A stretch of 64,000 bases of DNA from Botryllus schlosseri (lineage: Eukaryota), in contig CM119371.1 in NCBI GenBank assembly GCA_051294905.1, positions 18,478,001-18,542,000 of the forward strand. The letters are read 5' to 3'. The notes under the pieces are model-generated. The model saw nothing but the letters and a program-made list of their open reading frames with translations. It did not search any database and was not told the origin of the DNA. Every line of letters starts with the position of its first letter. Position 1 is the first letter of the stretch. This document shows, piece after piece, positions 5,031 to 57,400 of the stretch. The position numbers and the translations under genes are program-made.

Positions 5031-5639
5031 GTTCATTAAAAAATACGTTTCTCTATTTTGGTTCCATGTTGCCACATGCCCAAATGTCTCGTCGGAAGCA
5101 TATCGCGTTATTAATATATTCGCCATCACGTATATATTGCCGGAAATGGATTTCCGGCGCTCGTTCATATCAAACCGAAGACACCGATTTTCGAGACACA
5201 ATCATGTATTTCAAGAAATGCAGCTACACTGCTACAGAAATCGCTTTCAAATAAAGTCTACGCAATTTCTACATAAATAGCACGATGTTGTTTTGAGGAA
5301 AAGGCATTTTGATGCTGTTTATCACTAGCCTACAGTTGATATTTGCACAAGACAGATGAAGGTTGCACGATAATTGAGCTAGGTTTGCTCTAAAACTTTG
5401 GGGGTCCGCGATGACAAAAAGGTTGAAAACCACTGCCGTAGGCCTTACCCGATGGAACCACTGCTGTAGCCTGTGCGTCCTGAACGGATTAAAAATAAGA
5501 AAACGACTGATAATAAATATGAATAATCGTCATATCATACTTTCATCTGCCTAACACACACACACACACAGTGTACAATGCGATATACAAGACACACAAT
5601 GTGATGTAATGATCGTTCAGCAAATGATTATGCATTGTA

Positions 5640-12473: not shown

Positions 12474-13895
12474 CCGTAATTTTCCATGTAATGCGCAAAA
12501 TTTTTCCGATATTTTGTCCTAAAATCGGGGGCGCATATTATGCATGGTAAAACAAGCCTTGAAAAAAATCTCCTTCGAAATATAACTTGAAATCACACTT
12601 TCATTATGTTTGTTTTAATCACGCATCACATTCATCCATCATGCCCCGTAATTCGTATTATCAATGTTACATGATGCCAATTAGCGAGGAGCATGTTGCC
12701 AATTAGCGTCTGCGTTGCACAACTGCAAATGATCTCCTGTTGAGTTGGTTTGCCGTTTTTTCACGAGCGAAATTAGGGCATTGATTGCTACATGCACGCG
12801 CGGCAATCCTCGCTAATTCATTGCATCAACGTCAGGCCTGAACAATCGTATCTACAACACGCCATGTTCGCAAGATGTAATCGCTGGCACAGTCGCATCT
12901 CCAACAGACCTGGTGCTCACGACATAATCGTTGGCCTGAGCAATCGCATCCGTAATAGGCCTCGTGCGCAAGATGTCGCTGGCCTGAATCATCGCGACAT
13001 GGGCCTCGCAGGCTTTGGCTGCTATCTATACTATCGTTTAGAGACAATGCCGTTAAGTGTATAATGATTAGCGATCGTTATGTCATGATTGCTCAACAGT
13101 AGGGCTGTTCAAAAATAACCTTTTTTCCTGAATCTTGCGGGTTACTTGATTAAATCGTTAGGTTGCCTTAAAAAATGACGCACACCAAATTTGAATTCAT
13201 TCCAACCAATATTCGCGGATTTCGTAGAGTTTGAAAATTTTGAATTTGCCTAAAAATGCAAAAAAAAAAATTTTTCCAATTTTCCTTCCAACCTTATGAA
13301 ATTGTTGCACTGTCTTCAAAAACGATGCAAAACAAATTAGACTCAATTCCAAGCTGCAGAAGCCGAGTTATTCAAGTTTTTTGATGATAATTCTGGGATG
13401 ATCCACCAATCAAGGATAATCCCAGAATTATCAAAGAAAAACTGAAATAACTCCACTTCTACGGCTTCGAATTGAGTCAAATTTGTTTTGCATCGTTTTT
13501 GAAGACAGCTCAACAATTTCATGGGGTTGGCAGAAAAATTTGAAAAAATTTTTTTTTTGCATTTTTAGGCAAATTCAAAATTTTCAAACTCTACGAAATC
13601 CGCGAATATTGGTTGGAATGAATTCAAATTTGGTGTGCGTCATTTTTTAAGGCAACCTAACGATTTAATCAAGTAACCCGCAAGATTCAGGAAAAAAGGT
13701 TATTTTTGAACAGCCCTACTCAACAGTGACATCGCAAAACAGAATGATATCGAATACTGAAACATAACTATTCGTTTACTGCAAATGCAGGGTGCGTACT
13801 ATACATGGGTACAGGCTTTTCCCCAGAATTTATACGTCATTTTAAGTTGTGTATTATACATAGGGCCCGGGCGCACTATATTTGGAATATTACGG
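12474..13895. mobile_element. Pogo-like non-autonomous element (inverted sister of 8783-9575)
   Basis: TA|CCGTAATTTTCCATGTA ... TTTGGAATATTACGG|TA; internal sequence is the reverse complement of 8783-9575 once 13100-13726 is removed. Confidence 0.75.
13100..13718. mobile_element. Palindromic hAT-type MITE (619 bp, ~300-bp arms)
   Basis: TAGGGCTGTTCAAAAATAACC ... GGTTATTTTTGAACAGCCCTA, self-complementary almost to the centre (~13410); perfect 8-bp TSD CTCAACAG at 13092-13099 and 13719-13726. Confidence 0.92.
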
Positions 13896-15503: not shown

Positions 15504-15624
15504 GAACTTTTCGTACAGGATCGTCATTGACTTGACTATTGTCAGTCATTATTGCCACACAAAAGATAATCAATGTGATATCTGTTGAAAAGAATTTGCT
15601 GGAAAGAGTAATCTCAAGATTCAT

Positions 15625-16833
15625 ATGGAAATGGATACCGGTGTCCGACGTCACAGCTGCGATGTTTGTGGAAAGGAATTCACACTAAAGGGCAATCTGA
15701 ATAAACACATGGCTATCCACTCTGGTGTTAAAAGCTATAAATGTGATGATTGTGGCAAAGGATTTACTTACAAGTGCAACCTAAAGACGCATATGAGAAT
15801 ACATGGTGGTGTGCCAGAAATGTGCCAGAAATGTGATATTTGTGGAAAAGTATTCGTTACAAAAGCCTCCTTAAGCCGCCATCTTGATGTCCATGCTGGT
15901 GTCAAAAATCATATATGTGGTGTATGTGGGAAAGAATTCACGCAAAAGGGTGAGCTCAAGACACACAGCAGTGTGCATACCGGTGTCAGCAGCCATACCT
16001 GTGATATTTGTGGAAAAGTTTTCACTACAAAACGCTCCTTAAGCCGCCATCTTGATGTCCATGCTGGTGTCAAAAATCATATATGTGGTGTATGTGGGAA
16101 AGAATTCACGCAAAAGGGTGAGCTCAAGACACACAGCAGTGTGCATACCGGTGTCAGCAGCCATACCTGTGATATTTGTGGAAAAGTTTTCACTACTAAA
16201 CGCTCCTTGATCCAGCATCTTAATATCCATGCTGGTGTCAAGAATCATAAATGTGGTGTATGTGGGATAGAATTCACGCAAAAGGGAGACCTCAAGACGC
16301 ACATCAGTATGCATACTGGTGTCAAAAGACACAAATGTGAAGTTTGTGGGAAAGGATTCATTTCTAAATCTGACTTGAAGAGGCATCTTTATGCTCATGT
16401 TGATGTCAAAAGATATAAATGTGAAATTTGTTGGAGAGAATTCACTTCTAAATCTGCCTTGAATATGCATCTTGACATTCATGCTGGTGTCAGAGATCAT
16501 AGATGTGATGTATGCGGTAAAGAATTCACACAAAAAGGTGACCTCAAGACACACTTAGCCATGCATGCCGGTGTCAAAAGCCATAGGTGTGATGTTTGTG
16601 GAAAGGTATTTACTCAAAAGAGTAACCTAAAGGCTCATCTTACTGTGCATGCAGGTGTAAAAAATCATAATTGTGATATTTGTGGAAAAGCTTTCACTGC
16701 CAAATCTTCCTTAAGAACTCATCTTCTTATCCATGCTGGTGTCAAAAATCATAAATGTGATGTATGTGGGAATGCATTCACACAAAAGGTTGAACTCAAG
16801 AAACACATGGCTAGACATGCTGATGTCGTCTAA
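15625..16833 (+). CDS. Tandem C2H2 zinc-finger protein, 14 fingers (402 aa)
   Basis: 14 CxxC-x12-HxxxH units with (A/T)GVKxH linkers. Decayed fingers flank the ORF (in-frame TGA at 15586-15588; frameshifted fingers 16834-17070), so it could be a truncated gene or young pseudogene. Confidence 0.85.
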   Translation: MEMDTGVRRHSCDVCGKEFTLKGNLNKHMAIHSGVKSYKCDDCGKGFTYKCNLKTHMRIHGGVPEMCQKCDICGKVFVTKASLSRHLDVHAGVKNHICGVCGKEFTQKGELKTHSSVHTGVSSHTCDICGKVFTTKRSLSRHLDVHAGVKNHICGVCGKEFTQKGELKTHSSVHTGVSSHTCDICGKVFTTKRSLIQHLNIHAGVKNHKCGVCGIEFTQKGDLKTHISMHTGVKRHKCEVCGKGFISKSDLKRHLYAHVDVKRYKCEICWREFTSKSALNMHLDIHAGVRDHRCDVCGKEFTQKGDLKTHLAMHAGVKSHRCDVCGKVFTQKSNLKAHLTVHAGVKNHNCDICGKAFTAKSSLRTHLLIHAGVKNHKCDVCGNAFTQKVELKKHMARHADVV

Positions 16834-30622: not shown

Positions 30623-32080
30623 TTAGTGATTACTGGACTCAGATATTTGTTTCGTTTCCCATTGGCACGTACTGGGGTTCCCGCATTTAATAGCCTTCTT
30701 GCCATGTTTATGGTGATGCCAGCAGAGGCTGAAAGAACTGCGCGATTGTGTCTTTTTGCTAAGGCCGATGTCATTTCTCAAGTCATCGTGTAGCTTCAAC
30801 AGCTTCTCAAGCATTTGCAAAAGCGCCGCAGTGTGGTCTTGGTTGGTATTGCTCTGCAATCTATCAAGCACGCGTGCCTCATGGGTGGTATTCGAATGTA
30901 TTGCGTTCACATGCGGAGTCGTGTCAAACTCTCTAGCGTGGGGTGACAGGTTTGACTGTACTGCGTTCACATATTTATTTCGCTCAGAAAAACCAGCGTC
31001 GGCACGCTGGGCAATGGTCAACAGTTCCTGTATGCTAGTATCTGGGCCTTGCGCGAACATGGAAGGTCTTAGGCGGGAATCCAAAAGTTCTACAAACATT
31101 GATCTCTTTGAACACGTGGTAGCTTCGCATTCCGGAAAGCCGGTGTGATATTCAACGGTATTGTCATATGCTTCCTCCGGTGACAGATTCCCAGCGTTAG
31201 CAATGGTCAAAATACTCCGGAAATTATTCGCTAGGGCCTTTGATGGTGGGAGGAATCTCTGAAGCAAAGCTTTTTTTGTGTTCTCGTAACTGTCCTCAGC
31301 CCTCGTATCGACGCCCCCACTGAAAGTACGCCTAATTATATCTTGATCAAGGTTAAGCAGTACAAACGACGTACGCGCGTGGTTTGAAGTGATTCTGTTA
31401 GCCTCAAAAGAGATTTCCGCTAGCATAAAAAATTGATTCGGGCAGCGCGTATCGAAAGTAATCCGCTTCAGTTTGTTCGCTACTAAGGCCATCTGCCTTT
31501 GTAAATTATCCAAATAATTCCTCATAGAAGACGAGGTGTCAACTGACGGCGCGGCGGCCACCGAAGGCGCAGCGATTGCCGAAGCCTCGACATAATTCTG
31601 AACGGGAAGGCGAGCTATTTGTTGCGTTTGCTGTGCTAAAGTAGCTGTCTGTCCGCCAACCTGCGCCGTTCGCCTCGGCATACGCCGGGTGGTTACATTC
31701 AAGTGATTATTCAAGGGTGCTAGACTAGTCGGCAGAATTGAAAATTCTCCATCATGCTCACCCTGTTCCGAATTATGGCCAAATACTGGCAAGGTATACC
31801 GACCCCCGGACGTGCCCCCAACTGCGCCCGCCAAAGCCGTATTCATTTCGCCGGACAATATGTCGGCGTTATTTTGATTCGTTTTCCTGACCCGCTCGAT
31901 GCGGGCCTCGTCTTCATCTACATGCTCGTTTTTAACCTCGCTGGTAGGGAAAGCGTGCTTACTGTCATCGGCAATACTGTGAGAAGCAGCTTCGTGCTTA
32001 ACATCTTTAGGGTGACCGATTACAGAGTTAGGCTCGATATCCTTATCAGCAATAACTGGTTTCTTATCATTACTATCCAT
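30623..32080 (-). CDS. gag: Gypsy-type Gag polyprotein (485 aa, uninterrupted)
   Basis: CPNQFFMLAEISFEANRITS...SYENTKKALLQRF matches the P..WF...E..F....IT...Y..LK..L..RF pattern of Ty3/Gypsy gag; terminal LCWHHHKHGKKAIKCGNPSTC zinc knuckle. Lies between the LTRs in the PBS orientation. Confidence 0.85.
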   Translation of the reverse strand: MDSNDKKPVIADKDIEPNSVIGHPKDVKHEAASHSIADDSKHAFPTSEVKNEHVDEDEARIERVRKTNQNNADILSGEMNTALAGAVGGTSGGRYTLPVFGHNSEQGEHDGEFSILPTSLAPLNNHLNVTTRRMPRRTAQVGGQTATLAQQTQQIARLPVQNYVEASAIAAPSVAAAPSVDTSSSMRNYLDNLQRQMALVANKLKRITFDTRCPNQFFMLAEISFEANRITSNHARTSFVLLNLDQDIIRRTFSGGVDTRAEDSYENTKKALLQRFLPPSKALANNFRSILTIANAGNLSPEEAYDNTVEYHTGFPECEATTCSKRSMFVELLDSRLRPSMFAQGPDTSIQELLTIAQRADAGFSERNKYVNAVQSNLSPHAREFDTTPHVNAIHSNTTHEARVLDRLQSNTNQDHTAALLQMLEKLLKLHDDLRNDIGLSKKTQSRSSFSLCWHHHKHGKKAIKCGNPSTCQWETKQISESSNH

Positions 32081-33280: not shown

Positions 33281-35362
33281 TGATACTTTTCTCAGATATT
33301 GTATTATGTGTATTTAGGACTAATATCATCCGTCCATATTTTTTAAACTTGATTTTATGTGTACAAGTTACGGTTTCTGCAGTTTCCACATTTTACGACT
33401 TATGATTGCTGCGTCAAAACTTACCTTGGCTAGAATCGACAGATTTTCTATTATGTGTATTTAGGACTATGTATTTAAATTCCTATTCAGATTATACATA
33501 AATGCGAAAACTATGATGTCTATGTAAGGTTATATTCTCCGGATAATATTATTAATATCAAAATTCTATACATCATCACTATAATTACTTAATATAAAAT
33601 GCGATTTTGAGCGCTGCGACTTGATAATATGAACCCCTACGCTTCTGATGCAGATTTTTTGTGATAAGGACCTAGGTAACATTCAGAGTCTGCAACGATT
33701 GTTTGGATATACATTATAGCAATACCCCACTAAACTATAGGCGGTTATATTACTCTATTGGTCAGAGATAACTCATCCGTCTATATTTTTAAACTTGATT
33801 TTATGTATACAAGTTACTGTCTCTGCAGCCTCCACATTTTACGACTTATTTTCATTAGACGCAGGCAAGCGATTCTCCAGTTCGGAGCTACGGAAACAAA
33901 TCACTCGCATGTGCGCGTTCCGAATAGTCTTGTAGAATAACAGCTTAGTAGCATATACGCGAATCCCAAGGTGAAAATAATCGAACGAACTATAGCCGTA
34001 GGCGTGCGATTCGCAGGGCTTTATTTATACAAACTCTATCGATGCCTGTACGCGAACCCCAGCGTTAAAACGATTAGGTCTAATTAACACGTTCTGAAGC
34101 CGAAAATTTAGTCAACATCATTGAGATAGCCATGATTTGAAGATGGTGATCGAGTGTGACAATAGCACTCGCCAAGGTTAGACAAACATAACCTTAAACT
34201 ACTCTCTACTTCACAAAATATAAAGTTATAAAAGTAAGCAGATTTCTATGAAAACCCGTGAAATAGAAGTAAAAGTAGCCTAGAAACATAACTACTTAAT
34301 GAAAAATCGTGATTCTTGAAGTGACCACATTTCATACGATTCAGTCCTTTTCATGTCACTAGAATAAGGTGATTAAACTGACAGTGAAACGCCGCCGGCG
34401 TCTTATAACGTAATAATGTAAGCTGCGTCGGGTGCTGCTATAATGTTAGGAGCGAATATAGTAGAAAGTTCACGTCTGGACACCTGTAAGCAGGTGCGCA
34501 TACTACCGTAGTAAAACGCATAACAGAATTCACGCAAAAGTCGATATTGCTTTGTGATGCTTTTGATGTTGTTCCATACCGATTGGGAAGATAGGACTCC
34601 TAATTTCCTAACTAACTACATAATCCCTAGTAACGTAGTCAGACGCATAACGGAATTTACGCAAAATCGGTATTGCTCTGCGATAATTTTGACCACTATG
34701 TTTTGATAATAACTTGCTTCCGAGAAATAAATAACATTCATTATACGTTAGATGATACTTTTCCTTGATATTCTATTATGTGTATTTAGGGCTAATGCGA
34801 CATCACTATATTGCCGACAGGCCTGATTCGAACACACTAATTTTGCGAATTAAACTTTTATCGCGGAACGCAACAAGATAAATCATATGAATTTGTAAAC
34901 TACTTATTCATGACATAGTAATAATTCTACTTGTGTACTTTTTCATATTTTGCAGCAATTTTAGTAGTACTTAAATAAAATTCGGAATATAAACTAATCG
35001 AAAAATTCGGTAACCAATTTCGCATAGGCTATCCCTAGACTGCTCAGGTGGAATATCGTTACACGATCGCTCTGGTGGGGTCGATTAGACCCCATCAGTT
35101 AATATGCTTTTTGTCTTACCAATTTCGCTATACAGCTGTCTAATAACTTCTTGCATGACGTTATAACGATTCATATTCCCTTTTTGAACCCTACTGTCTA
35201 CCCATTTAAAAAGTCCCGCTCTGGCTAAACACCAACACGCAAATGGCGATATGGGGTCAAACACCCCCCACCAATTAATTTTATTAACGAAGAAATAACA
35301 AAAAGACAATACAAGACAATACAGCAATACAACAGAGTAACAACGACAACAACAAAGTAGAT

Positions 35363-38300
35363 TCAATCCGAATCCTCCAGCTCCATGCACTCTTGACATG
35401 TCACTATTTTCACAGAGTGTGCTTGGCAGACAAATTCCCCACATTTTCCACATTTCTCGGTTGTTTTCCGGTCTTGTGCTCTACCGCAAAGACAGCATCT
35501 GCCACGTGCAGCTTTGGAGAGCTTTGCTGGTGGCATTTTACTGTCTTCTCCCGGAAAAATTCTTCTAGACGCGAGTCTTGTTCGGACGCGCAAGTGAGTA
35601 TTTGATTGCCTGGACACTGCATTTTTCTTTGTTAGGGCCAGTGCAATTTCCACTATAAATCCTCTGTGTGTTTGTTTCTTCGCGCGGTTACCTTCAGCTA
35701 GCAAAGATAATAGCCGTTGCATGCAGACAAGTTCATCAATCCAAAGAAGATTGTCAGAGGCCAGCGCTTACTATTGCGAGAACAGGAATAGTTTGCCACC
35801 ATTCTGTCTGCCACGTCGACGCCACCTTTTGTTTGATTATAAAATGTTATTATATCTGATTTCCGAGCGTCACCAGAGCTTACAGCAATTTTATCATCGT
35901 GATGCTGGCTGCTGTGGAACGCCCTGCGCCCTCTCACGGTTCATACACTTTGTAAGATACAACATCATTATGGTACATCGCCTATATCTGTATATCACGT
36001 GACTTATATCTTTCTTCTCGCAACCACGTGACTTACCATTTATCAGCTCGTGCATTTCAATTACAAACTAGACTCATATGCGACATCCTACTGTATATTC
36101 CATACATATTCGACCAATATATCTATCTGAGGCAATACTGTCGTTGCATTCACGTTGGAGTTGTCAGATCAAGGACTAACACAGGGACGTGCGTCTACTA
36201 CGATAAGAGCTAAGTATATCTACCCAGCCACATATTACGTGGGACTCAGGTTACAACTCTAGCAGGTTATCAGACGCCATATCTGGTCTGCATGGTGCAC
36301 ACTCGTGAGATGATTTCAGCTTCAACGAAGGACGAATCGCCTCCTACACAATTTGACTTACAACTGCTATATGGAGCCATCCAGGACTTTTCCACCCTTA
36401 CACGGTAAATCCGTTTATTTGACTTCGAATTTCGGGAATGCATTTTGCAGTGAGAATGATTTATCTCACTTGGCTTTATCGGCTAGCAGCAAATTTCATC
36501 GTTATTGCTCGATTCGTACTTTCTATATAATTATATTACTTGTTCGTGTTCCTATATTCAATGCCATGCCATTCAGAGAACCAGATTTGAGTGATACTCT
36601 GACACTGACAGAACATTGTTCATTGGTTTCGTTTTTATATTACGGCCTTGAAGTCTGTTATTTTAATCTCAGCGTTTTCCTTTCTAACGACATTATCACA
36701 TACATTATGCGTCGGGAATTTCACTCTCGGCCACCTGATAAAATCGCTTCTCTACCCCGTGAAATCGAATATTAACCACCGATCCACTATTCAATATTTT
36801 CATATAGAACTTCACTTTCGCACAATTAGCCTACCTAACTCGTTTACCAAACCATTTGCTTACAATTGTTTAATTGTTCAACAACTCCATTTCGATTTTA
36901 TTATAAATTTTGCGGTTTTCGTACTTTCATATTACCGCGTAAATCACTGCCAATCACCGTCGTAATTTACCAATCTATTTTTGTTCGTTTTTTTTAATTC
37001 ACGGCATCTCCGTGGTACATAACTACCAATTCCATGATTTAATTTCGGAATACTTCTTTAAACCTAATTCATACATTACTTTTTTTTACGGTTTCAACTT
37101 CCACCTATTCATTCGTATAGCGATTTTATGTGTAATTCATGCGACATTTATTTTTGTGCGTATTTAAGCGCTGCCTTTTTAACTACCGTAACTATTCCGT
37201 CAATGTGAATTCGATAACAATAGTGAGTAGTGACGCGGCCTTTCGCCCGACTATAGCATAACATTCCACCGGGGTTTAATATGATAATTCTGCGGCAAAA
37301 TCACCTCTTTTTAACCGAGAGTTTCTTTCTCGGCTATGAACTATTAAGATATACCAGTAGCACTGGGAATTGGGATTTCATAATTAATTTTTTTTCTAAC
37401 TTCAATTCACCTTATCTAATTGCGCGTATTCGCATAGCCTCGCTTTTGCTACAATTTCTCATAATGGTTATTTGATTTTAATCACATATTTGCATTACTT
37501 AAAACTCAGCCTTATGCTGGAATTTGTGGATACGGAATTAATTTCCCATTTTTTAAAAAAAACATTGACTTATTTACTTTCTTTATACTAGGTCTTTTAC
37601 ATGATCGCTTACTTCTAATTACCCATACTTAAATAAGGCCTCTTTAACACGGTGACAAATTGTCATTTTTCTTCGTAATTTACGTCTTTACATACTTACC
37701 CGCGATAATGTCATCTTAACATACTCAGATTTTACAACCTAGTTACATGCGATTAACGATACATTTATTTTACCCGCAATGCCATTTGGACGCAATATTA
37801 TCTAAACATCCCGTGATATATTTTGGCCACGGACATTTCCCATTCATATATGCTACTCCGACCTAGGAAATCAAGAGTGGTTTCGGTGGTGTTGCGATCC
37901 AAGGCACGATTTCGACCCGGGGGTATCCGAGTCTTCTCAAAGCGTCGGCCACGGGATTGCATATCTGGTCCCGCTTTACCGCCTTGATCAAGCGGTGGGG
38001 CGGAGTCAGTGTTGTAATTAGACTCGTGGTCTCCAGCGCTCAGACTCGCGATATTACGAAATCTGATGCTGACGTTCGCACCGCAATCTGAGTCATTTCT
38101 TCGATCTACTAGGAAGTCCGTACTTACAAAAGCGTTACAGTCACTGTATATTATATATATACTTTTAATGTGAAGCACGATTCTTACTTACGCAATTGTG
38201 CATTAACTGTCGCGACGTGTTTAACGGCACACGTCAATTTATTTCCGGAAACCTTTTTATATCTGGAGAGCATATGGCGCGCAGATCCAGCGACATGTCT

Positions 38301-41300
38301 GGATTTGTGGTATGCCATGCGGTGTACATATCGCTAGGGACTTTTCTGGACATGACTGCGTGTTCGCAGCACTAAATTCGTACATGCCATTAGGCTACCT
38401 AACAATACAAACATTTTTCATTACTTCGGCTATTGTTATTACATTCTCTTTATAATTTTTACACTATACTTTCACGACTTACTTTGTCATATAATTAAAT
38501 GACGAATTCCCCGCGTTACGCTACGATTACATTCATCTTGACATGCTTTGATGCGAATATTCCATTTCTAGATACTTTTGATCTGATTAATACACCCGGA
38601 TAACCCGGCATAATTTCCATTCACTTCGAGATTACGTAAATTTTTATTAATTTCTACTTGAAAGCTCAAATTACTCACAAGGCTTATATAACCGCCTTGC
38701 GCCCGTCACATATGGAATCGATTCAATACTTAGTACTTACGCCTACATTATAGCGTAGGCCTACTCGGCTCATTTCACCCCTATCGGTGCAGATTTTCAC
38801 CACTTCATATCTGGTTCGCTGACAAATAATGTGTCTATTGTGTTTAATTTCTTTTTCAATTTGTCATTAGGCTATCTATACTATTATTGCTATTATTAAT
38901 ATTTTCCTACTTTGTGAATTAGCCTGTTTGCTGCCGATATTGCATTGCATTCTAGAATTCGTCGTCGTCTGCCAACGGGTCTACCGCGAACTGCCGAAAT
39001 GCTCACTACTACACGACATTCCTCCGCTCTCCGATTCCGCCGCCTATGTCAACATTTCGGGACATACCAGTTCAACATTACTTTGGTAACACCACGTATT
39101 TATACGCATTTGTAAGTCGACTTCGATAGTCGTGAAGAATATTCGCAGAACAGGCGATACGCGTTTTAACCTTGGCGGAGTGAACTAATTGGATCTAAAT
39201 ACAATCATTATTGAGCAATGAGCATTGACTGTTAATTAATCCAGGCAGGTTCGCGACCCACGGTGCACGGTTTAACTGTATATAAATAATTATTCGGTCT
39301 TCCTAAAGACTGATGGACATTTGACATTTCCATCGCGATGAATTTCCTAATCCTTGAAATATTAGCATTCATGAACTTTTTCTATTATATTATATTAATT
39401 TTCGTCAATCGCACGTGGAAACCACGCTTCTCTTGCATGGCCGGTTATCGCGGGAACAATCCCGTAACCCGGATACCCAAAGTGGATTTTGATTGACAGA
39501 CATTTCCCGCAACCTCTTCCGAGATACTGATTTGTTTTGCCTACATTTTGAGAGATACTTGCTACTTGGTTTGTATAATTTTCCCCTATTGCGGCAGACT
39601 TAACGCCGCCGCCCGTACCGTCTAATGTGATAATCGGTCTTCCCCGCTGTCGTGGGATTTTCGGCGGCTAACAATAACACATATCTACCCCATTTCCCAC
39701 ACTAATGACCTATTCGTCATGCCGTATTCCGCGGCTCCTTTGTTTGTCATATATCGAACCGATTGTCGGCCATTTTGTATTCAATTGTCGACCCTTTTTT
39801 TCGTGTTTTTTTTCCTTTTTCATTTTAATACAGCTTTCATAAAATTGCCCTTTACAAGCCGTTCTGGTATCTTGAACCGCGCGTTTCGACTACAGGACGC
39901 CGTTTGAATAATTTTCTATTCAACTCCATTGACTCATAAAAGCAGTCTCTGGTCGCTATAGAAAACCCAGACATCAGTTTCCTACTTCCGTTACTTCCTA
40001 TCTTCTAATACCACGTGTTTCGATTAATTTGAAAAGTAGTTTTGACTTTAATATGCTCCCAAACCATACACTGGATTCCGCTTATATGATTTTGCCTTTA
40101 CAAATAACATACACTCGTTTTAGAGCTACCACCAATTCGTTCTAGCGTATGACGCATTCGCCAGACCTAATGTCAATTCCTTTGTGTACATATTTTTTTT
40201 TCTTCTTTCGTTCTTTTAATAAAACACAAAAATTGCCTCAGATAACCAATTCGCCATTTTGACTATATTAAATCTTACCCTTAACGTGTTATCGTCACGC
40301 TATCTCATACGGTTGCATCGCAATCATGTTTTATAAATATTCCAACATCAGGCTACAATATCGCATTTTAAATTGACGTTGTTATCACCCTTCTACCAAC
40401 ACTTTATTAACTACACACTTCGGCCTTACCTCGTTAAACCACATGCTATGTGTTATATGTTGAAATTATTTCGTTTCGTAATCTTACTGCTATTCAATGC
40501 ATGTAAATTTCATTTTCTATTGTCGCTAATCACGCCTTTTTAGCAGAGGCGATGTGGAACGCCCTGCGCCCTCTCACGGTTCATACACTTTGTAAGATAC
40601 AACATCATTATGGTACATCGCCTATATCTGTATATCACGTGACTTATATCTTTCTTCTCGCAACCACGTGACTTACCATTTATCAGCTCGTGCATTTCAA
40701 TTACAAACTAGACTCATATGCGACATCCTACTGTATATTCCATACATATTCGACCAATATATCTATCTGAGGCAATACTGTCGTTGCATTCACGTTGGAG
40801 TTGTCAGATCAAGGACTAACACAGGGACGTGCGTCTACTACGATAAGAGCTAAGTATATCTACCCAGCCACATATTACGTGGGACTCAGGTTACAACTCT
40901 AGCAGGTTATCAGACGCCATATCTGGTCTGCACTGCTCACCATGTTAAGAATTTTCTTTGAGCCTTTGCCCGTTGGAAGATATGACAGCAGTGTCATATC
41001 TTTTTGAAATCCAAAAATGCTGCTGTACACCTCCCTCCCCCGCAGAGAAATAAACGCAGGAGGTATCTCTCTCTTGTTCTTTCGAAGGGTGCCAACTGCT
41101 GTCAATTTATGGTCATGAAGCAATGACGTCACCAATGGTATACTGGTGTACCAGTTATCGAATGTGATGTTTCGGCCAGATCCTGATATATCAGACACCA
41201 GCCGTGTCACTACTTCTTTGGCAGAGTTGTCGACGTTGTACGGCCCGTCCAGTTGCGTCCCGCAATAAATTTCAAAATTATGGGTGCAGTAAGTCTTTGC

Positions 41301-42111
41301 ATCACACAAGGCATGTAGTTTGATGCCATATTTTGCCGGTTTGTTTCGAATATACTGTCGGAAAGAACAACGTCCTCGAAACCCCCAAAGCATTTCATCA
41401 ATTGTCACAAATTCAGACAACACGTAATTTTTCTTGAAGGTGTTCAATATCATATCCGATATTGTTCGAATTTTCGCCAATTTGTCATTTTTTTCTATCT
41501 TCGCGTGTGGTAATGTCATCAAACCGAAGACATCGCAAAATGAATCGGAATCTTTCGCATGACATTGTTACCTTGAAGATATCAAGTCCTGTGCCGTCAT
41601 CTGCCCAATACTCATCAAGTGACAATCTTGAGCTTCTATGAACCCCAGCTAGAAGAAGAAGACCAATGACAGCTTCCATCTCCGCCGAATTAGTTGGCCC
41701 GACCCTGTACTTCTCTTTGTAGTTTTGGGCTTCTTCAGGTATCTTCTTGTTTGTAAATTCAACAAGTAAATCTATCACTTGTGGTGTAAAGAAGAGCTTC
41801 CAATAATCAATGTAGTTATCAGCTTCTAGGGCAGGCCCAGTGAGACCCGGTGAAAATTTTATCATATTCGCTGCACTTCTTCGACTAGCAGTCGGAGCAG
41901 TCTTTCTCCAAAACGTGGTACCGTCTTTTCCTAACCAACCACTGCCAGCTTCACCTTCTTCGGGATTTTCTTGATCATCTTGCTCTTCGTCTGAAGAGCT
42001 CTCAGAAATTGCAGGGTCCGGAATATACTCTTCTTCGTCTCCTTCACTACCGGACGATATAGTAAGTTCGGTAAGTTCAGCTAACACCTCTTCTCCCGTC
42101 AACCAGCGCAT
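35363..42111 (-). pseudogene. piggyBac transposase, two frameshifts plus an LTR-element insertion
   Basis: Pieces 42111-41485, 41522-40933, 35912-35698 and 35722-35363 carry TIDEML..FRGRCSFRQYIRNKPAKYGIK, ITFDNWYTS, FYNQTKGGVD (DDD triad), KRWP and a C-terminal Cys-rich domain. Removing 35913-40936 restores ..NMVSSQHHDD.. in frame. Confidence 0.93.
35913..40932 (+). mobile_element. Non-coding (LARD-like) LTR retroelement, 5020 bp
   Basis: 380-bp LTRs TGTGGAAC...TCTGCA at 35913-36292 and 40553-40932 with no difference seen; TSD CTGC at 35909-35912 and 40933-40936; PBS-like TGGTGCACACTCGTGAG at 36293; PPT-like AGCAGAGGCGA before 40553; no gag/pol ORF. Confidence 0.93.
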
Positions 42112-43296
42112 TATTTCCACACTCAATCCAGATATAACTGACTTCCTCTGACCAACAAAGAGGTCTGGAAGCATGCCGTCATGCCTCGTTGACTGCACGT
42201 GACAGAAACAATGCCAAGCAGCAACAAAAAGTCGAAATCCATCCGACTACAATGATGAGATAATTACTTAGTTTGCCCACTGTATCTGCAAAATCAGACC
42301 CATGCGCAATCAATAGCTCATTGCGCCGAGGTATTAGCGATAATCAGCTAATGCTTTATTCCGAATGATAGTGTATAACACCATTGAGGATTACATGTCT
42401 GGCAAGAACAATCCGACCGCACATAAAAATATGGCTCACATTTTTGTTCGCCTGGGGTCGTTTAGACCCCAACCTGAGCAGTCTAGGGCTATGCATACAA
42501 ATGAGGAAAGTTACATCAACGCGTGTTAACTAATTGAATTATGTAGCTTGTAATTCATGCAAGTTGCGAAACTTCTACACTGAAACCTTTAAAGTAGATA
42601 GAATCGAAAAAACTAATCGAAAATATTCACGAAGTTTGGATGCGACATATTTGGGTTTTTTAAAATCATTCATACCCATGATTCGAAATACTTTAACTAA
42701 CTTATGTTTTCGACATAAGATAAGCGTGAAATGTACAAATTTCTATGTTGCGCAAATACCACAAACTTTGCTTGCTTTCAGAGCCGGCAACTAAATGCAA
42801 GACAGAATTTACGCAAAAGTTGCTATTCTGAAAATTTTGTCAAGGTAATAGTTTAAAAACTTACACTTGAGCACTACGAAATGTTCAAGTACTTTATCTT
42901 TACACGACGTTTTTTGTAAAATGAATACTAATATTATTGAAAAAATAAAAAATAAAAAGAGCGAAAAATTACATTTTATCCCGGAACGCAACAAGAAAAA
43001 TCGTATGAATTTGTAAACTACTTATTCATGACATAATATTAATTCTACTTGTACACTTTTTCACACTTTATAACACTTTAAGTAGTACTTAACAGTTTCA
43101 GTTTTAAATAAAATACGGAATATAAACTAATCGAAAAATTCGGTTACCAATTTCGCGTAGGCTATGCATACAAATGAGGAAAGTTACATCAACGCGTGTT
43201 AACTAGTTGTATCGAGTTATCGAATGATTTTTTCTTTACATCAAAATAACTAGAGTGTGTAGCTACATTAAAAACGTATCTAAATGAGCTCCAGGT

Positions 43297-44445
43297 CATT
43301 GTGATTATGCAGCATACCAAATTTCATCACATATTTCATGATGGAACAACTTTAAAACTAACGCAGTTCTATAGCAACTTTTGCCTAAATCTGTTTTCGG
43401 TAGCATGTACATATCCATAGTCAGCTTTAATAACAGAATTACCATGCTAATATGTGACTCCTCACCTTGAAACTTGGTACGTAGTTGTAGGACATTGTGA
43501 TTATGCAGCATACCAAATTTCTTCACACATTTCATAATGGAACAACTTTAAAACTAACGCGGCTCTACATCGACTTTTTGCGTACATCTGTTTGCGGGAG
43601 CGTATAGCACGTACCTATACATAGTCAACTTTAATAACGGAATTACCATGCTTAACATTGAATCCCAACTCTAAACTTGATTCGTAGTTGTAGGACATTG
43701 TGACAATGCACCATGCTAAATTTCATCGCGCATCTAATGATGGATCACCTTTAAAATTAACGCAGTCGAATACCGACTTTTAAGCATATCTGTTTTGCGT
43801 GAACATAGCATATACCTATGCATAGTCAATTTTAATAGCAGAATTACCGTGTTAAACATTGAATTCCCACCTTGAAAGTTGGTACGGGATTATAGGACAC
43901 TATAACAATGCACCATACCAAATCCCATCACACATTTCATGATGGAACAACTTTAAAACTAACGCGGCTCTACATCGACTTTTTGCGTATATCTGTTTTG
44001 CGGGGGCGTATAGCACGTACTCATACATAGCTAACTTTAATAACGGAATTACCATGCTTAACATTGAATCCCAACTCTAAACTTGATACGTAGTTGTAGG
44101 ACATTATGGCAATGAACCATGCTAAATTTCATCACACATCTAATGATGGAACACCTTTGAAACTATCGCAGTCGAATACCGACTTTTACACAAATCTGTT
44201 TTTCGTGAACATAGCATATACCCATACATAGTCAATTTTAATAACAGAATTAGCATGCTAAACCTTAAATTCTCACCTTGAACGTTGGTACCCAGTTGTA
44301 GGACATAATAACAATGCACCATACCAAATTTCGTCAGGCATTTCATGATGTAACACTTTCAAAAACCAACGCAGTTCTATACAGGCTTTTGGCTAAATCT
44401 GTGTTTCCGTAGCGTAGCACGTACCTATACATAGTCAACTTTAAT
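43297..44445 (+). repeat. ~200-bp tandem array, ~5.7 copies (mirror 52541-53689)
   Basis: Units start near 43297, 43493, 43696, 43898, 44102 and 44304. Confidence 0.88.
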
Positions 44446-47400
44446 ATCAATACATGTTTATCGTAAGTCCTACACAGTCATGATATCCGGCCGAGTTTGA
44501 CTTTTAGAAAACATTATACCGACAACGCGACATCTTACAAAATTGAAACCACGGTGACTGCTTGAGAGACCTACCAGTGATATCGCGGTAATCTAGTTAC
44601 TTCCACAAAATAGTATGTATTCAACTTACTTTCCACAAATCTAACGCGCAAAACAATTTACTTTGCTAACGAAAAGTGCTGAATCATCATATCATTATCC
44701 ACGCAACAATACACCTAAAACATACTATCGTACAAAATGGTCGCTAACCTCTTTGTGCACCAGCTGTAAATCTCACAAGCAACAAGTTTCAAGATTCCAG
44801 TTATTGAAAAAATGTTAAAGTGTTTCTCCTGCGCCAAGTCGTTATGTTGACGAAAGCGTATATTGTAATATCATGATCGATTTGCATTCGTTGGTCACAA
44901 ACTGTCACTACTCTAAATAATTATTTTTCACTCAAACACAACAGCATACTTGTCGCCATTCGTTTTCATCAAGCACGAGTTCAATAAACTTACTTACTAC
45001 GACATGAATTGGTATTTTTATGTTGTGTAAATAGGTAATAATTAATTTTAGTAACACTATACCAACATCATCGAGTTGTGCGAATAGATTTACATGTGGT
45101 GTTATGGTTTTAATCGAAGTACACTGCACGATCTAATGTAGAGTCATCTCTATTGTATAGCAACTCGGTAATCGAAATGCATGCATTAACATTTAAACAG
45201 CGATCGTGTTTCGTCACGCGAAAAATATGTTCACTACTGCGATACTCCGCACAGGGCATGCAAATCCTTTTCACACTCGTAATAGTATACCAACGGTTAC
45301 CGGCGACAACGTTTAACAATACCAACGACACTAAACATACGATACCTACCCAATCTGCAAATTGTTTCGATTTATTCTGTCCGTTTCAATTTAAGATAAG
45401 GAAGCCCATTTCACTCAATGTATCGATGCCTACGGTACTCTACAAAATTTTCTGATTAATTCTCCCTATGCTTATTTATCACAAGAAAGATGATTTGACA
45501 CCTAAAGTACGAAATACTTTTTCGCTTGAGCTAAGTCGCAGCGCCTGGAGTGGAATTGTACGGGGTATGTGGACTCATTTCGTAGGGCTCTATGCCATAG
45601 GAGCATACTTTACGCTCCAATTCGATTCCCACACATTCCATATAATTACTAACAGAACCATTGAGTACCAGCCTTGACATTTTCCGTAGTACTAGATGGC
45701 ATGTATACAATTTCACGACATCCGACATTACGACGAAGACTATCAAAATATCGAAAAGAAGCCCTCTATTCTTTTCTGAAATAATCAAGGTTTTATCAGG
45801 ACTTCCCTTCATCTAAACTCCAGCAGAATCACTAATAACCTCTCAAGTGTACTCAATTTACTCTAATTTGATACTCGTGTACCAAATCCCTATTTTCCGC
45901 AAGTATGATAGAGGCTATCGCTCGATACTCAACGATTCGTAATTTTGCTGGAATACAAGTACAATTAGTTTAAAGTAGTTTGAGGTTACGTTTGTATCAC
46001 CTTGACAAGTGCTATTATCAAAAAATACTTTTGCTAAACTCTTACACTTTCACTAAACTTCTACACTGAATTTTGGAAAGTAGATAGAAAAGGAAAACTA
46101 TTAACATAAGCTAAGTGAGAAGCACGCAAATTTCGATTGCATACAAATGCCACAAACTGCGCTAACTTCCAGAGTTGTTAAGTATAGAAGTACTGGTACG
46201 TCTTGAGAATACCCAAGTAGGTTTTTTGCCTACATGTACCAAATACTCTCAAGTCCTTATGATATTGGATTTACATGCCCAAGTTGGGGATTCTCGTTAC
46301 ATTGTCTTCTTGTGTGTTGATGATTAAATACATTGCGACGCTGTCACTTGGCTCTTAATTGGATTGTTTCATCTGAAAGAACTAATTTTGTCTGTTATAA
46401 TACTTTATTAGACTTGTATGGCGAGGCGTCTGGTATCGAGAAGTAAGATCGCAAGCAATCATTGAGTCAGTCGTGATGTCTGATTGGGAGTGTCGGCCTC
46501 TTATATCCAGCAAGTGTAATGAGCCATATTAGGCCATAAGTATCGTAGGCCCCGCGTGAAGTGTACAAATTTCGATGTTGCGCAAATACCACAAACTTTG
46601 CTTGCTTTCAGAGCCGGCAACTAAATGCAAGACAGACTTTACGCAAAAGTTGCTATTCTGAAAATTTTGTCAAGGTAATGGTTTGAAAACTTATACTTGA
46701 GCACTCGTACTTCTTGAGAATACCCAAGTAGGTTTTTTGCCTAGATGCACCACATAGTCTCAAGTCCTTATGATATTGGAGTACATCAACTTCATGATAG
46801 CTAGAGTATTAAACAGTAATATACTTAGAGTACTAATGTTTTACTTACTCGGAAATGACTACTTCTACCTTATTTTAAAGGATACCTCATTCGAAGCGAA
46901 ATTGTATGTGGTTTTGGATAACATCCAAGATGTAGGCTCACTTTGAAGGTTACTTCGTAAAACTCAAATATTGCGCAGTGAGAGTTCGCAAATTCTCGAA
47001 GTATTTTTGTTATTTTTATTGCGATAAGTCATTCTGCAGCGCGAAAATGCGTCGTAGGATATAGATGAAACTAGCACCACTCATCAAGACCGCTGAAAAC
47101 AGTACGTTTCAACATTTAGTAGCAGTAAATTTCTAGTAAAGTACAAGACGTGATGATTTCCGAGTGAGTTAAAAGTATTGCAGGTATAGTTTACCTGAAA
47201 ACCGAATACTCTGAAATAGAAGTAGATGCAGTGTAAATAGTTAATCACTTGATTAAGTTTAGCGCAAGCAGATAAAACCTATACTTGAGTAGTACAAAAT
47301 GCACGAGTACTTCGCTATCGCCTCCCTGCACGTAATAAGTGCTTTTACCGATACTCGTCGGTTTCAGTTTTAGATAGAATTCAGAAACCAAATAATTTCA

Positions 47401-48149
47401 TAAACCTAAGCTAATTTAATGAATTTACTCGAATGTACTATGCCGCGCTGATAAGATTAATTATAATATACTTATCATGTTACAGCGATTTTTCTAGCGT
47501 AGAAAATCTTTAAAATGTAGTAAGCAGGCCAAATGAAGATATTCGTTGAGTTGAATAAACATAAAAAATACTCTAGACCACTTTATCGGTACTTTACAGT
47601 TTCAGTTTTAGATAAAATTTGTCCCTTTCACCTATAATTACAACTCCTCGCTATCTAAACATGTTTAGAATATATTATTTGCGATGATACGAACCCGTGA
47701 AGTACTCGAGTAGCTTTTCGTAGGATATAGATGAAACTGACAACACTCACCAAGACCGCTGGTCCACTGAAAAAAGTACATTGTAGCAGTAAAGTCCTAC
47801 TAAAGTACAAGAAGTAATGATTTCCCAGTTAGTTGAAAAGTAAGTATTGAAGGTATAGTTTGCTGGAAAAAGCGAAAAACTCTGAAATCGAAGTAGATGC
47901 AGTGTAAATAGGTAATCACTTCATTAAGTATAGCGCAAGCAGGCCAAACCTATACTTGAGTACTGCAAAATGTACAAGTACTTCGCTATGTTCTCCCTCC
48001 ACGTAAAAAGTGACTAGGTTTTAGACTACTTTATCGGTACTCGACAGTTTCAGTTTAGATAAAATTTGGTAAGACTTTAAATTTTAAAGTAGTTTGAGCT
48101 TACGTTTGTATCACCTTGACAAGTAACATTATCAGACATGAAAATGATA

Positions 48150-51400: not shown

Positions 51401-54400
51401 CTACGAAATGAGTCCACATACCCCGTACAATTCCACTCCAGGCGCTGCGACTTAGCTCAAGCGAAAAAGTATTTCGTACTTTAGGTGTCAAATCATCTTT
51501 CTTGTGATAAATAAGCATAGGGAGAATTAATCAGAAAATTTTGTAGAGTACCGTAGGCATCGATACATTGAGTGAAATGGGCTTCCTTATCTTAAATTGA
51601 AACGGACAGAATAAATCGAAACAATTTGCAGATTGGGTAGGTATCGTATGTTTAGTGTCGTTGGTATTGTTAAACGTTGTCGCCGGTAACCGTTGGTATA
51701 CTATTACGAGTGTGAAAAGGATTTGCATGCCCTGTGCGGAGTATCGCAGTAGTGAACATATTTTTCGCGTGACGAAACACGATCGCTGTTTAAATGTTAA
51801 TGCATGCATTTCGATTACCGAGTTGCTATACAATAGAGATGACTCTACATTAGATCGTGCAGTGTACTTCGATTAAAACCATAACACCACATGTAAATCT
51901 ATTCGCACAACTCGATGATGTTGGTATAGTGTTACTAAAATTAATTATTACCTATTTACACAACATAAAAATACCAATTCATGTCGTAGTAAGTAAGTTT
52001 ATTGAACTCGTGCTTGATGAAAACGAATGGCGACAAGTATGCTGTTGTGTTTGAGTGAAAAATAATTATTTAGAGTAGTGACAGTTTGTGACCAACGAAT
52101 GCAAATCGATCATGATATTACAATATACGCTTTCGTCAACATAACGACTTGGCGCAGGAGAAACACTTTAACATTTTTTCAATAACTGGAATCTTGAAAC
52201 TTGTTGCTTGTGAGATTTACAGCTGGTGCACAAAGAGGTTAGCGACCATTTTGTACGATAGTATGTTTTAGGTGTATTGTTGCGTGGATAATGATATGAT
52301 GATTCAGCACTTTTCGTTAGCAAAGTAAATTGTTTTGCGCGTTAGATTTGTGGAAAGTAAGTTGAATACATACTATTTTGTGGAAGTAACTAGATTACCG
52401 CGATATCACTGGTAGGTCTCTCAAGCAGTCACCGTGGTTTCAATTTTGTAAGATGTCGCGTTGTCGGTATAATGTTTTCTAAAAGTCAAACTCGGCCGGA
52501 TATCATGACTGTGTAGGACTTACGATAAACATGTATTGATATTAAAGTTGACTATGTATAGGTACGTGCTACGCTACGGAAACACAGATTTAGCCAAAAG
52601 CCTGTATAGAACTGCGTTGGTTTTTGAAAGTGTTACATCATGAAATGCCTGACGAAATTTGGTATGGTGCATTGTTATTATGTCCTACAACTGGGTACCA
52701 ACGTTCAAGGTGAGAATTTAAGGTTTAGCATGCTAATTCTGTTATTAAAATTGACTATGTATGGGTATATGCTATGTTCACGAAAAACAGATTTGTGTAA
52801 AAGTCGGTATTCGACTGCGATAGTTTCAAAGGTGTTCCATCATTAGATGTGTGATGAAATTTAGCATGGTTCATTGCCATAATGTCCTACAACTACGTAT
52901 CAAGTTTAGAGTTGGGATTCAATGTTAAGCATGGTAATTCCGTTATTAAAGTTAGCTATGTATGAGTACGTGCTATACGCCCCCGCAAAACAGATATACG
53001 CAAAAAGTCGATGTAGAGCCGCGTTAGTTTTAAAGTTGTTCCATCATGAAATGTGTGATGGGATTTGGTATGGTGCATTGTTATAGTGTCCTATAATCCC
53101 GTACCAACTTTCAAGGTGGGAATTCAATGTTTAACACGGTAATTCTGCTATTAAAATTGACTATGCATAGGTATATGCTATGTTCACGCAAAACAGATAT
53201 GCTTAAAAGTCGGTATTCGACTGCGTTAATTTTAAAGGTGATCCATCATTAGATGCGCGATGAAATTTAGCATGGTGCATTGTCACAATGTCCTACAACT
53301 ACGAATCAAGTTTAGAGTTGGGATTCAATGTTAAGCATGGTAATTCCGTTATTAAAGTTGACTATGTATAGGTACGTGCTATACGCTCCCGCAAACAGAT
53401 GTACGCAAAAAGTCGATGTAGAGCCGCGTTAGTTTTAAAGTTGTTCCATTATGAAATGTGTGAAGAAATTTGGTATGCTGCATAATCACAATGTCCTACA
53501 ACTACGTACCAAGTTTCAAGGTGAGGAGTCACATATTAGCATGGTAATTCTGTTATTAAAGCTGACTATGGATATGTACATGCTACCGAAAACAGATTTA
53601 GGCAAAAGTTGCTATAGAACTGCGTTAGTTTTAAAGTTGTTCCATCATGAAATATGTGATGAAATTTGGTATGCTGCATAATCACAATGACCTGGAGCTC
53701 ATTTAGATACGTTTTTAATGTAGTTACACACTCTAGTTATTTTGATGTAAAGAAAAAATCATTCGATAACTCGATACAACTAGTTAACACGCGTTGATGT
53801 AACTTTCCTCATTTGTATGCATAGCCTACGCGAAATTGGTAACCGAATTTTTCGATTAGTTTATATTCCGTATTTTATTTAAAACTGAAACTGTTAAGTA
53901 CTACTTAAAGTGTTATAAAGTGTGAAAAAGTGTACAAGTAGAATTAATATTATGTCATGAATAAGTAGTTTACAAATTCATACGATTTTTCTTGTTGCGT
54001 TCCGGGATAAAATGTAATTTTTCGCTCTTTTTATTTTTTATTTTTTCAATAATATTAGTATTCATTTTACAAAAAACGTCGTGTAAAGATAAAGTACTTG
54101 AACATTTCGTAGTGCTCAAGTGTAAGTTTTTAAACTATTACCTTGACAAAATTTTCAGAATAGCAACTTTTGCGTAAATTCTGTCTTGCATTTAGTTGCC
54201 GGCTCTGAAAGCAAGCAAAGTTTGTGGTATTTGCGCAACATAGAAATTTGTACATTTCACGCTTATCTTATGTCGAAAACATAAGTTAGTTAAAGTATTT
54301 CGAATCATGGGTATGAATGATTTTAAAAAACCCAAATATGTCGCATCCAAACTTCGTGAATATTTTCGATTAGTTTTTTCGATTCTATCTACTTTAAAGG

Positions 54401-57400
54401 ATTCAGTGTAGAAGTTTCGCAACTTGCATGAATTACAAGCTACATAATTCAATTAGTTAACACGCGTTGATGTAACTTTCCTCATTTGTATGCATAGCCT
54501 ATGCGAAATTGGTTACCGAATTTTTCGATTAGTTTATATTCCGAATTTTATTTAAGTACTACTAAAATTGCTGCAAAATATGAAAAAGTACACAAGTAGA
54601 ATTATTACTATATCATGAATAAGTAGTTTACAAATTCATATGATTTATCTTGTTGCGTTCCGCGATAAAAGTTTAATTCGCAAAATTAGTGTGTTCGAAT
54701 CAGGCCTGTCGGCAATATAGTGATGTCGCATTAGCCCTAAATACACATAATAGAATATCAAGGAAAAGTATCATCTAACGTATAATGAATGTTATTTATT
54801 TCTCGGAAGCAAGTTATTATCAAAACATAGTGGTCAAAATTATCGCAGAGCAATACCGATTTTGCGTAAATTCCGTTATGCGTCTGACTACGTTACTAGG
54901 GATTATGTAGTTAGTTAGGAAATTAGGAGTCCTATCTTCCCAATCGGTATGGAACAACATCAAAAGCATCACAAAGCAATATCGACTTTTGCGTGAATTC
55001 TGTTATGCGTTTTACTACGGTAGTATGCGCACCTGCTTACAGGTGTCCAGACGTGAACTTTCTACTATATTCGCTCCTAACATTATAGCAGCACCCGACG
55101 CAGCTTACATTATTACGTTATAAGACGCCGGCGGCGTTTCACAGTCAGTTTAATCACCTTATTCTAGTGACATGAAAAGGACTGAATCGTATGAAATGTG
55201 GTCACTTCAAGAATCACGATTTTTCACTAAGTAGTTATGTTTCTAGGCTACTTTTACTTCTATTTCACGGGTTTTCATAGAAATCTGCTTACTTTTATAA
55301 CTTTATATTTTGTGAAGTAGAGAGTAGTTTAAGGTTATGTTTGTCTAACCTTGGCGAGTGCTATTGTCACACTCGATCACCATCTTCAAATCATGGCTAT
55401 CTCAATGATGTTGACTAAATTTTCGGCTTCAGAACGTGTTAATTAGACCTAATCGTTTTAACGCTGGGGTTCGTGTACAGGCATCGATAGAGTTTGTATA
55501 AATAAAGCCCTGCGAATCGCACGCCTACGGCTATAGTTCGTTCGATTATTTTCACCTTGGGATTCGCGTATATGCTACTAAGCTGTTATTCTACAGGACT
55601 ATTCGGAACGCGCACATGCGAGTGATTTGTTTCCGTATAGCTCCGAACTGGAGAATCGCTTGCCTGCGTCTAATGAAAATAAGTCGTAAAATGTGGAGGC
55701 TGCGGAGACAGTAACTTGTATACATAAAATCAAGTTTAAAAATATAGACGGATGAGTTATCTCTGACCAATAGAGTAATATAACCGCCTATAGTTTAGTG
55801 GGGTATTGCTATAATGTATATCCAAACAATCGTTGCAGACTCTGAATGTTACCTAGGTCCTTATCACAAAAAATCATGCATCAGAAGCGTAGGGGTTCAT
55901 ATTATCAAGTCGCAGCGCTCAAAATCGCATTTTATATCAAGTAATTAGTGATGATGTATAGAATTTTGATATTAATAATATTATCCGGAGAATATAACCT
56001 TACATAGACATTATAGTTTTCGCATTTATGTATAATCTGAATAGGAATTTAAATACATAGTCCTAAATACACATAATAGAAAATCTGTCGATTCTAGCCA
56101 AGGTAAGTTTTGACGCAGCAATCATAAGTCGTAAAATGTGGAAACTGCAGAAACCGTAACTTGTACACATAAAATCAAGTTTAAAAAATATGGACGGATG
56201 ATATTAGTCCTAAATACACATAATACAATATCTGAGAAAAGTATCAAGATGCGGCAATCAATGCGGTGATGATGTGGCAATGGATGATGTGGCACTATAG
56301 GTGTGGCGCTTGATGATGTGACACAGATGAATGTGGCAGGTGATGTGCCAATGGGCGGATGATGTGGCAATAGGTGTGCTATAGGTGCGGCAATGGGCGT
56401 GCTATAGGTGTGGCAATGGGTGGATGATGTGGCAATAGGCGTCCCATAGGTGCGGCAATGGGCGGATGATGTGGCAATGTAGGTGTGGCAATTAAGGCGA
56501 CGTGGCCTTCTGGGATTGGCCGGCGTATAAATTGCTTTCCCTTACTACTTCGCGGACCCCCTGGAAATGCTTCGCGGACCCCTGGGGGTCCGCGGACCCC
56601 CGGTTGAGAACCGCTGCGAATAGGGTCTGCTGTCGTGAAGTTTTCAACAGAAATCGACAATTAAAACGTGTACCGTGTTCGTCCGTGAAGAATGTCCTTG
56701 TCGTCGATAGCAAAAACGTCAGTCCCAGTATTGAAGTTGTATATCTAACGACTGTTCTCGGGGCCCATGCAGCAATTAGAGCTTATGGTCTCTGATGATC
56801 TGTATAGAAGTACAGCTAACCAATCGTCTTGGTGCTCGGCTATACAATACTTATCTCGAGAAGCTGTTGCCTTGGGTGAAGTTCTTCGTAACAGATATAT
56901 GCTCAATACAATGGTCTATTCGACGTTGATGCAGTAGTAGCGTATAGAGTCTCAATCATAATAATCATCTAAAACACTTGTTACAGGCACTTATGTACTA
57001 GTCTGGACTCTCGAGTAATCTCAAAAAGAAGTAGTTTCTTATTCGAGACATAGCAAAATATCATGGACGAGTGATCACAGCGGAATAGCTGCAGTATCAG
57101 CAAATAGCGGATAGCCGAAGGAGGGCCTGGGAGCGAAGCCCCCCGGAAGTCTGGCTTATCACCCGATGGGGGGCCCAAGACCAACGTTTTTTTTGGTGGC
57201 GGCTGACGAAGTGCTGTTACGGCCCTGGTAACGAATTAGTTTTACCTACGGGAACGCCCGAATATGTTTAATTAATAAATACGAGCCTTTTATTTACCCA
57301 TAAAACAGCTCACTCAGCGCTACTGGTAAATCATATTACATGGGCTGAGGGGATAAAAAGTTTATAGCGACTTACCTATGTAATTACTACCTATTCATTC

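Follow-up and report, generated by a model that had tools for sequence, protein, structure and literature searches.

The 64,000-nucleotide stretch of Botryllus schlosseri DNA analysed here (the window; assembly GCA_051294905.1, contig CM119371.1, positions 18,478,001 to 18,542,000) carries a new piggyBac-like element at a real CTAT site, two mismatches from TTAA. We give a probability of roughly 0.7 to the reading that the element belongs to an ordinary TTAA-preferring family and made a rare off-target insertion at a site keeping the central TA. The copy offers a clean natural example of a two-mismatch insertion in which both duplications are present and several empty sites are at hand; the published cases, in the parts of those papers available, lack these or do not show them. 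Papers are cited by PubMed Central (PMC) accession, and statements about each refer to the available part of its text.

Element ends and target site

The piggyBac copy spans 35033-42488 and measures 2,432 bp once a 5-kb insert carrying long terminal repeats (LTRs) is subtracted. Its 17-bp terminal inverted repeat (TIR), CCCTAGACTGCTCAGGT, is present exactly twice in the window, at 35033-35049 (plus) and 42472-42488 (minus), as a perfect match; no further copy with four or fewer mismatches lies elsewhere in the 64 kb. CTAT stands outside both TIRs. The transposase is encoded on the minus strand, so that the target reads ATAG in the element sense. Agreement of two random 4-mers has a probability of ~0.005, computed for this window. 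A first-pass annotation of this DNA had described perfect 17-bp TIRs flanked by CTAT, and the exact search of the window bears this out.

35029-35032, target-site duplication CTAT (ATAG in the element sense), element 3′ end
35033-35049, minus, 17-bp TIR, element 3′ end; first 7 bases as at the Trichoplusia ni (T. ni) piggyBac end in PMC7351741
35076-35094, minus, 19-bp palindromic subterminal repeat, 26 bp inside the 3′ TIR
42453-42471, minus, 19-bp palindromic subterminal repeat, 0 bp inside the 5′ TIR
42472-42488, minus, 17-bp TIR, element 5′ end
42489-42492, target-site duplication CTAT, element 5′ end
43162-43165, plus, paralogous empty site GCGTAGG-CTAT-GCATAC in an internal repeat of the host arm
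53821-53824, minus, mirror of the paralogous empty site, GCGTAGG-CTAT-GCATAC
54494-54497, minus, empty site GCATAGG-CTAT-GCATAC in the uninterrupted mirror arm

CTAT is the genuine pre-insertion target, because the three empty sites in the window and contigs of three runs (X1, X12 and X13) all carry it. In those runs the empty-site form appears as a loose end at 42487, in 38, 2 and 5 contigs, respectively. Together with the duplications on both sides, these data uphold the annotation's claim that CTAT was the actual target. A 5-bp duplication, GCTAT, was rejected, as TIR symmetry would break by one base. A target hairpin (GCATA-GGC-TATGC) was likewise rejected as the cause of the insertion, its folding energy of -2.6 kcal/mol (z -0.20) being no better than that of shuffled sequences. 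TTAA is plentiful at the locus: the 8,055-base arm holds 62 sites, of which the closest is ~40-55 bases from the insertion.

Transposase and its lesions

The reading frame of the transposase is divided into four pieces, separated by two frameshifts and the LTR element.

35387-35704, minus, transposase C-terminal piece with cysteine-rich domain, beyond the second frameshift (near 35704); 33% identical to P0002 residues 482-586
35704-35912, minus, transposase piece with the third catalytic Asp (YNQTKGGVD); PF13843, E 1.6e-8
35913-40932, plus, LTR element with identical LTRs, TG...CA ends and a 4-bp duplication, CTGC
40937-41487, minus, transposase core with the first and second catalytic Asp and the omega loop; PF13843, E 1.9e-37
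41488-42108, minus, transposase N-terminal piece; frameshift in a T run near 41488

The element is a member of the piggyBac superfamily, as had been annotated. Three coding pieces match PF13843, and equivalents of the catalytic residues D268, D346 and D447 (the DDD triad) are all present. The C-terminal piece (35387-35704) found no Pfam match when searched alone; the cysteine-rich domain of P0002, a close homologue, aligns to the window C-terminus, with cysteines and histidine kept. Added to this DDD transposase and cysteine-rich domain are TIRs starting CCCT, asymmetric subterminal repeats and a 4-bp duplication. Published TIRs of piggyBac-like elements are 12-19 bp long and start CC[C/T]T (PMC2872659, PMC5381638).

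One insertion and two frameshifts were said to break the gene, and this description holds: the LTR element occupies 35913-40932, and comparison with P0002 places the frameshifts near 41488 and near 35704. None of the four coding pieces contains an in-frame stop. The 41488 frameshift is missing from eight X1 contigs, one X12 contig and one X13 contig, and the frame is therefore open at this point in other copies. Relative to those contigs there are 16 near-fixed coding differences (picked from the best 40 of 215 rows of run differences), 10 silent and 6 replacing. The pattern suggests a once-active family under selection, with a few lesions private to the window copy.

The LTRs of the insert are 380 bp each and identical (35913-36292 and 40553-40932), with TGG just after the 5′ LTR. 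The longest open reading frame (ORF) of the element is 153 aa, and the two longest ORFs in its internal sequence of 4.3 kb found no match in Pfam. This LTR element is very young and probably non-autonomous. An LTR-like copy, 71% similar, lies at 4536-4880.

Target contacts

The T. ni piggyBac structure shows all four bases of the target unpaired. Position 3 is an A read by N440, position 2 is a T whose methyl group is held by V414, L416 and Y439, and the outer A, which stacks on Y283, bonds the outer T (PMC7351741). We mapped these residues onto the window protein through P0002. Identical equivalents were found for D268, R275, Y283, K290, D346, R372, K375, R376, Y439, N440 and D447, while the equivalent of P285 is R, as in 8 of 120 homologues. 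V414 and L416 are replaced by L and M. In both CTAT and ATAG, position 2 is still T and position 3 still A; only the outer pair is lost. Judged from sequence, the V414 and L416 changes would be the sole molecular hint of a difference, yet they face an unchanged base. Because the residues concerned hold the second T, the pocket changes do not predict a change at the outer bases.

Relatives and other copies

The best protein matches share 55-68% identity with the core piece; those that are named are PGBD4-like and mostly from arthropods. Over the whole length, identity is 54% to P0002 and 49% to P0006. A metagenome scan, from which the best 80 of 311 related stretches were kept as loci, added further relatives. 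A quick tree was built from 80 rows, comprising the window protein, 27 of the 80 loci and the members of P0001-P0060 longer than 450 aa, without any T. ni or Pokey sequence. Within a 13-row clade (support 99) that includes P0002, P0004, P0006 and P0023, the window protein branches deepest. Scans for protein relatives in viral contigs and prokaryote genomes found none.

The end-finder, which dropped pairs that were subterminal repeats, resolved no terminal pair at 63 of the 80 loci. At 13 loci, representing ~11 families, it paired the ends and found the same 4-mer outside both, TTAA in every case. Two of the TTAA-flanked loci, L004 and L060, share with the window element the arrangement of a TIR and an asymmetric palindromic subterminal repeat. 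Flanks were unequal at four loci: L021 (ACAA/TTAA), L053 (ATAA/TCAA), L024 (GCTC/ATAG) and L001 (CTAG/GATG). Three loci, L024:3062-6092, L052:3119-5420 and L053:454-3566, form one family with the TIR CCCTGCTCAGGTAA, of which CTGCTCAGGT is common with the window TIR; within it the flanks are TTAA/TTAA in L052, in addition to the unequal pairs of L024 and L053.

The TIR followed by five degenerate bases had no match in metagenome contigs or in prokaryote genomes. Three viral-contig matches to the bare TIR were rejected as chance, as they share one context and show no piggyBac end. Two records from the runs reach the 5′ end of the element. The match of X12 record 14, with 6 differences over 166 bases, ends exactly at 42488, and 7 further letters are unaligned; this copy is therefore not followed by CTAT. 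X1 record 5, a diverged copy (25 differences, 3 gaps), ends its match at 42489, one base into the site. Both argue against a fixed, oriented CTAT site. The element 5′ end (42260-42457) is deeper than the body in X1 and X13, with many contigs ~10% diverged; this extra depth may come from short non-autonomous derivatives with the same end.

The host palindrome

The element lies in one arm of a large palindromic repeat.

32978-56549, host palindromic repeat; arms ~8 kb, termini AGTAGT, 6-bp duplication TCGCGG

TCGCGG flanks the palindrome on both sides, and AGTAGT stands at its start and end. AG-type termini and a 6-bp duplication, both present here, are what we take to be the Maverick/Polinton signature, and the palindrome is likely a non-autonomous Maverick/Polinton derivative. 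No ORF longer than 113 aa was found in its 42500-48000 region. Tandem repeats lie at 43293-44449 and near the centre (~48493). Comparison of the arms gives 10 substitutions and 3 indels over 2,060 bases and 6 substitutions over 5,988. Summed depth in X1, which is not copy number, is 23,000-116,000 in the flank and 260-2,400 in the transposase. The presence of the piggyBac element in one arm only implies that it was inserted after the arms were last equal, or was precisely excised from the other arm; the target is CTAT under either history.

The right flank of the palindrome, 56550-56620, resembles one end of a small element, where a GGGGTCCGCGGACCCC palindrome and a minus-strand CAGCGGTTCTCAAC terminus are seen. 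We presume this element to be hAT-like, and the Maverick-like repeat seems to have landed within it.

Off-target insertion or changed specificity

We favour off-target insertion by a TTAA-preferring family on the strength of the CsuPLE1 precedent, conserved contact residues and the X12 record. CsuPLE1 of Chilo suppressalis, read on the 5′ side only, occupied 17 TTAA, 1 CTAT, 2 ATAT and 1 CTAA among 21 sites (PMC4273485). The premise of the first-pass annotation that natural off-targets are single mismatches was thus too strong, and CTAT in the present copy is a published minority site. Pokey used TTAA at 88%, TTAT at 6%, ATAA at 5% and CTAA at 1% of sites (~12% non-TTAA), keeping the middle T and A, which are also kept in bat (7.2%) and human (2.4%) cell assays (PMC3849761). 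ATAG is among the rare sites of 157 piggyBac-like elements (PMC5381638), and in surveys almost every family has TTAA (PMC5381638, PMC10813416). In mouse cells, 93% of T. ni piggyBac sites were TTAA, the others being mostly one base off (PMC3983033). The available text of PMC2872659 and PMC3952818 added nothing on CTAT. A literature search combining piggyBac, CTAT and 'target site duplication' found no paper, and no family with CTAT/ATAG as its main target appeared in the literature searched, most subscription papers and Repbase Reports being outside its coverage. Repbase subgroups such as piggyBacA and piggyBacX may have duplications other than TTAA.

The T. ni structure points to how such an insertion could arise. 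The transposase would melt the four target bases and read the second T and third A through the pocket and the Asn, and the outer T and A would mainly hydrogen-bond to each other. Losing the outer pair might then lower, not abolish, integration, with N-TA-N sites used at a low rate; CTAT/ATAG would be weak but usable for an unchanged enzyme. The insertion would be recent, later than the last equalising of the palindrome arms, and the LTR element would have entered the gene still more recently, or travelled with the piggyBac element.

Several observations weigh against off-target insertion. In mouse cells, T. ni piggyBac rarely uses two-mismatch sites (PMC3983033). The pocket variants are uncommon: of 120 homologues, 2 have the L at V414 and 5 the M at L416, and the 13 TTAA loci have neither. 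At only 33-44% identity to the window protein and outside its 13-row clade, these loci inform the prior but are no test of the family itself. Among loci with both ends located, the nearest, L001 (26-4264; 43% identity, 16-bp TIRs), has flanks CTAG/GATG and no TTAA. Exact scans yielded no second family copy with readable flanks, and TTAA and ATAG are indistinguishable after X12 record 14, as both would end the match at 42488.

The first-pass annotation took CTAT as the mark of a family with relaxed or shifted specificity. This is unproven, and off-target insertion is favoured since CTAT keeps TA, CsuPLE1 sets a CTAT precedent and the contacts are conserved. We consider it doubtful that the target of a natural family has relaxed or shifted away from TTAA, towards N-TA-N or CTAT/ATAG, with the L/M pocket residues as part-cause. 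In its relaxed form, requiring the central TA but accepting many outer bases, perhaps via the changed pocket residues, this is an unlikely account. It would make a two-mismatch site more probable, and the rare pocket variants lie near the catalytic core; the change is probably family-wide for one position or more, as X13 record 17, which covers 40940-41104, has only three differences, two of them placed elsewhere. Yet the changed residues hold the second T (PMC7351741), which CTAT and ATAG retain. The paired ends with unequal, partly non-TTAA flanks (L001, L021, L024 and L053) also speak for relaxation, but unequal flanks are not duplications and may reflect decay or chimeric assembly, and L024 and L053 group with L052, which has TTAA on both sides. 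The predominance of TTAA in the surveys (PMC5381638, PMC10813416) counts against it as well. A grid of assumed inputs (priors of 0.5-4% of families shifted, plus site rates) gave a posterior for a shifted family of 0.01-0.86, with a middle range of 0.17-0.38.

A family that switched to CTAT/ATAG as its main target is a good deal less probable. The only readable copy has CTAT, and PiggyBac-2_Cvir, reported among 212 types as having a unique duplication other than TTAA, TATG (PMC10813416), indicates that switches may exist. However, a symmetric dimer reading both strands would not be expected to favour a non-palindromic site (from PMC7351741), the residues contacting the outer bases are unchanged, and the X12 and X1 records described above leave the site at its first or second base. 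Among the 18 loose ends listed of 205, none lies at 42488, at 42492 or behind 42492.

Large palindromes are places of conversion and misassembly. The copy lies inside one, and its own junction was not among the 24 read pieces listed of 4,862, which leaves some room for an artefact, whether a mutated or converted TTAA duplication or an assembly error. We regard this as very improbable: it needs the identical two changes on both sides, whereas the three window empty sites and the empty form in three runs all show CTAT. The arms, moreover, differ by 16 substitutions and 3 indels over ~8,050 bases and so are not one sequence duplicated by the assembler.

If the specificity of the family had indeed changed, this would be of consequence for genome engineering. 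Pipelines with a TTAA filter would then count too few such families, and efforts to retarget piggyBac would have a natural template in the enzyme. The TTAA preference is named as a limit of the tool in a 2025 mining study, which retained only those elements that match TTAACC with two or fewer mismatches (PMC13461360). CTATCC passes this filter, and such copies may therefore sit unremarked in that dataset.

Other features of the window

A 485-aa ORF at 30623-32080 (minus) has a CWHHHKHG...C motif and no Pfam match; we presume it to be gag-like. Near it, a repeat at 32174-32734 matches 4903-5440. An open frame of 414 aa at 15589-16833 (plus) encodes ~14 C2H2 zinc fingers. A broken non-LTR retrotransposon occupies 1032-3280 (plus), with reverse transcriptase PF00078 at 2624-3277, and a 623-bp palindrome with 92% arm identity lies at 13098-13720 among clustered short dispersed repeats.

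Comparison with known systems

T. ni piggyBac (IFP2, PDB 6X67/6X68) resembles the window element in its 4-bp duplication, a TIR starting CCCTAGA, asymmetric subterminal repeats and a length of ~2.4 kb. The proteins share the DDD triad, the omega-loop residues R275, Y283 and K290, R372 and R376, Y439 and N440, and a C-terminal cysteine-rich domain. The T. ni TIR is 13 bp long rather than 17 bp, and the window element differs further in its CTAT/ATAG site, in L and M at V414 and L416, in R at P285 and in its broken gene.

The nearest proteins are those of PGBD4-like elements from arthropod and marine sources (P0002, P0004, P0006 and P0023, the last from Penaeus japonicus), which fall in the same clade. 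Pokey of Daphnia shares minor sites that keep the middle TA (TTAT, ATAA and CTAA; PMC3849761), but it targets 28S ribosomal DNA (rDNA) and belongs to a separate clade. We rejected membership of the Pokey clade: the site is in a palindromic repeat, not rDNA, and the nearest proteins, in a tree holding no Pokey sequence, are PGBD4-like.

CsuPLE1 offers a parallel in target use, as a natural TTAA family with one CTAT site in 21. In contrast to the window element, only its 5′ flanks were read, and the available text of PMC4273485 gives no empty site. That paper places its transposase closest to human PGBD3, and the likeness to the window element is by description only.

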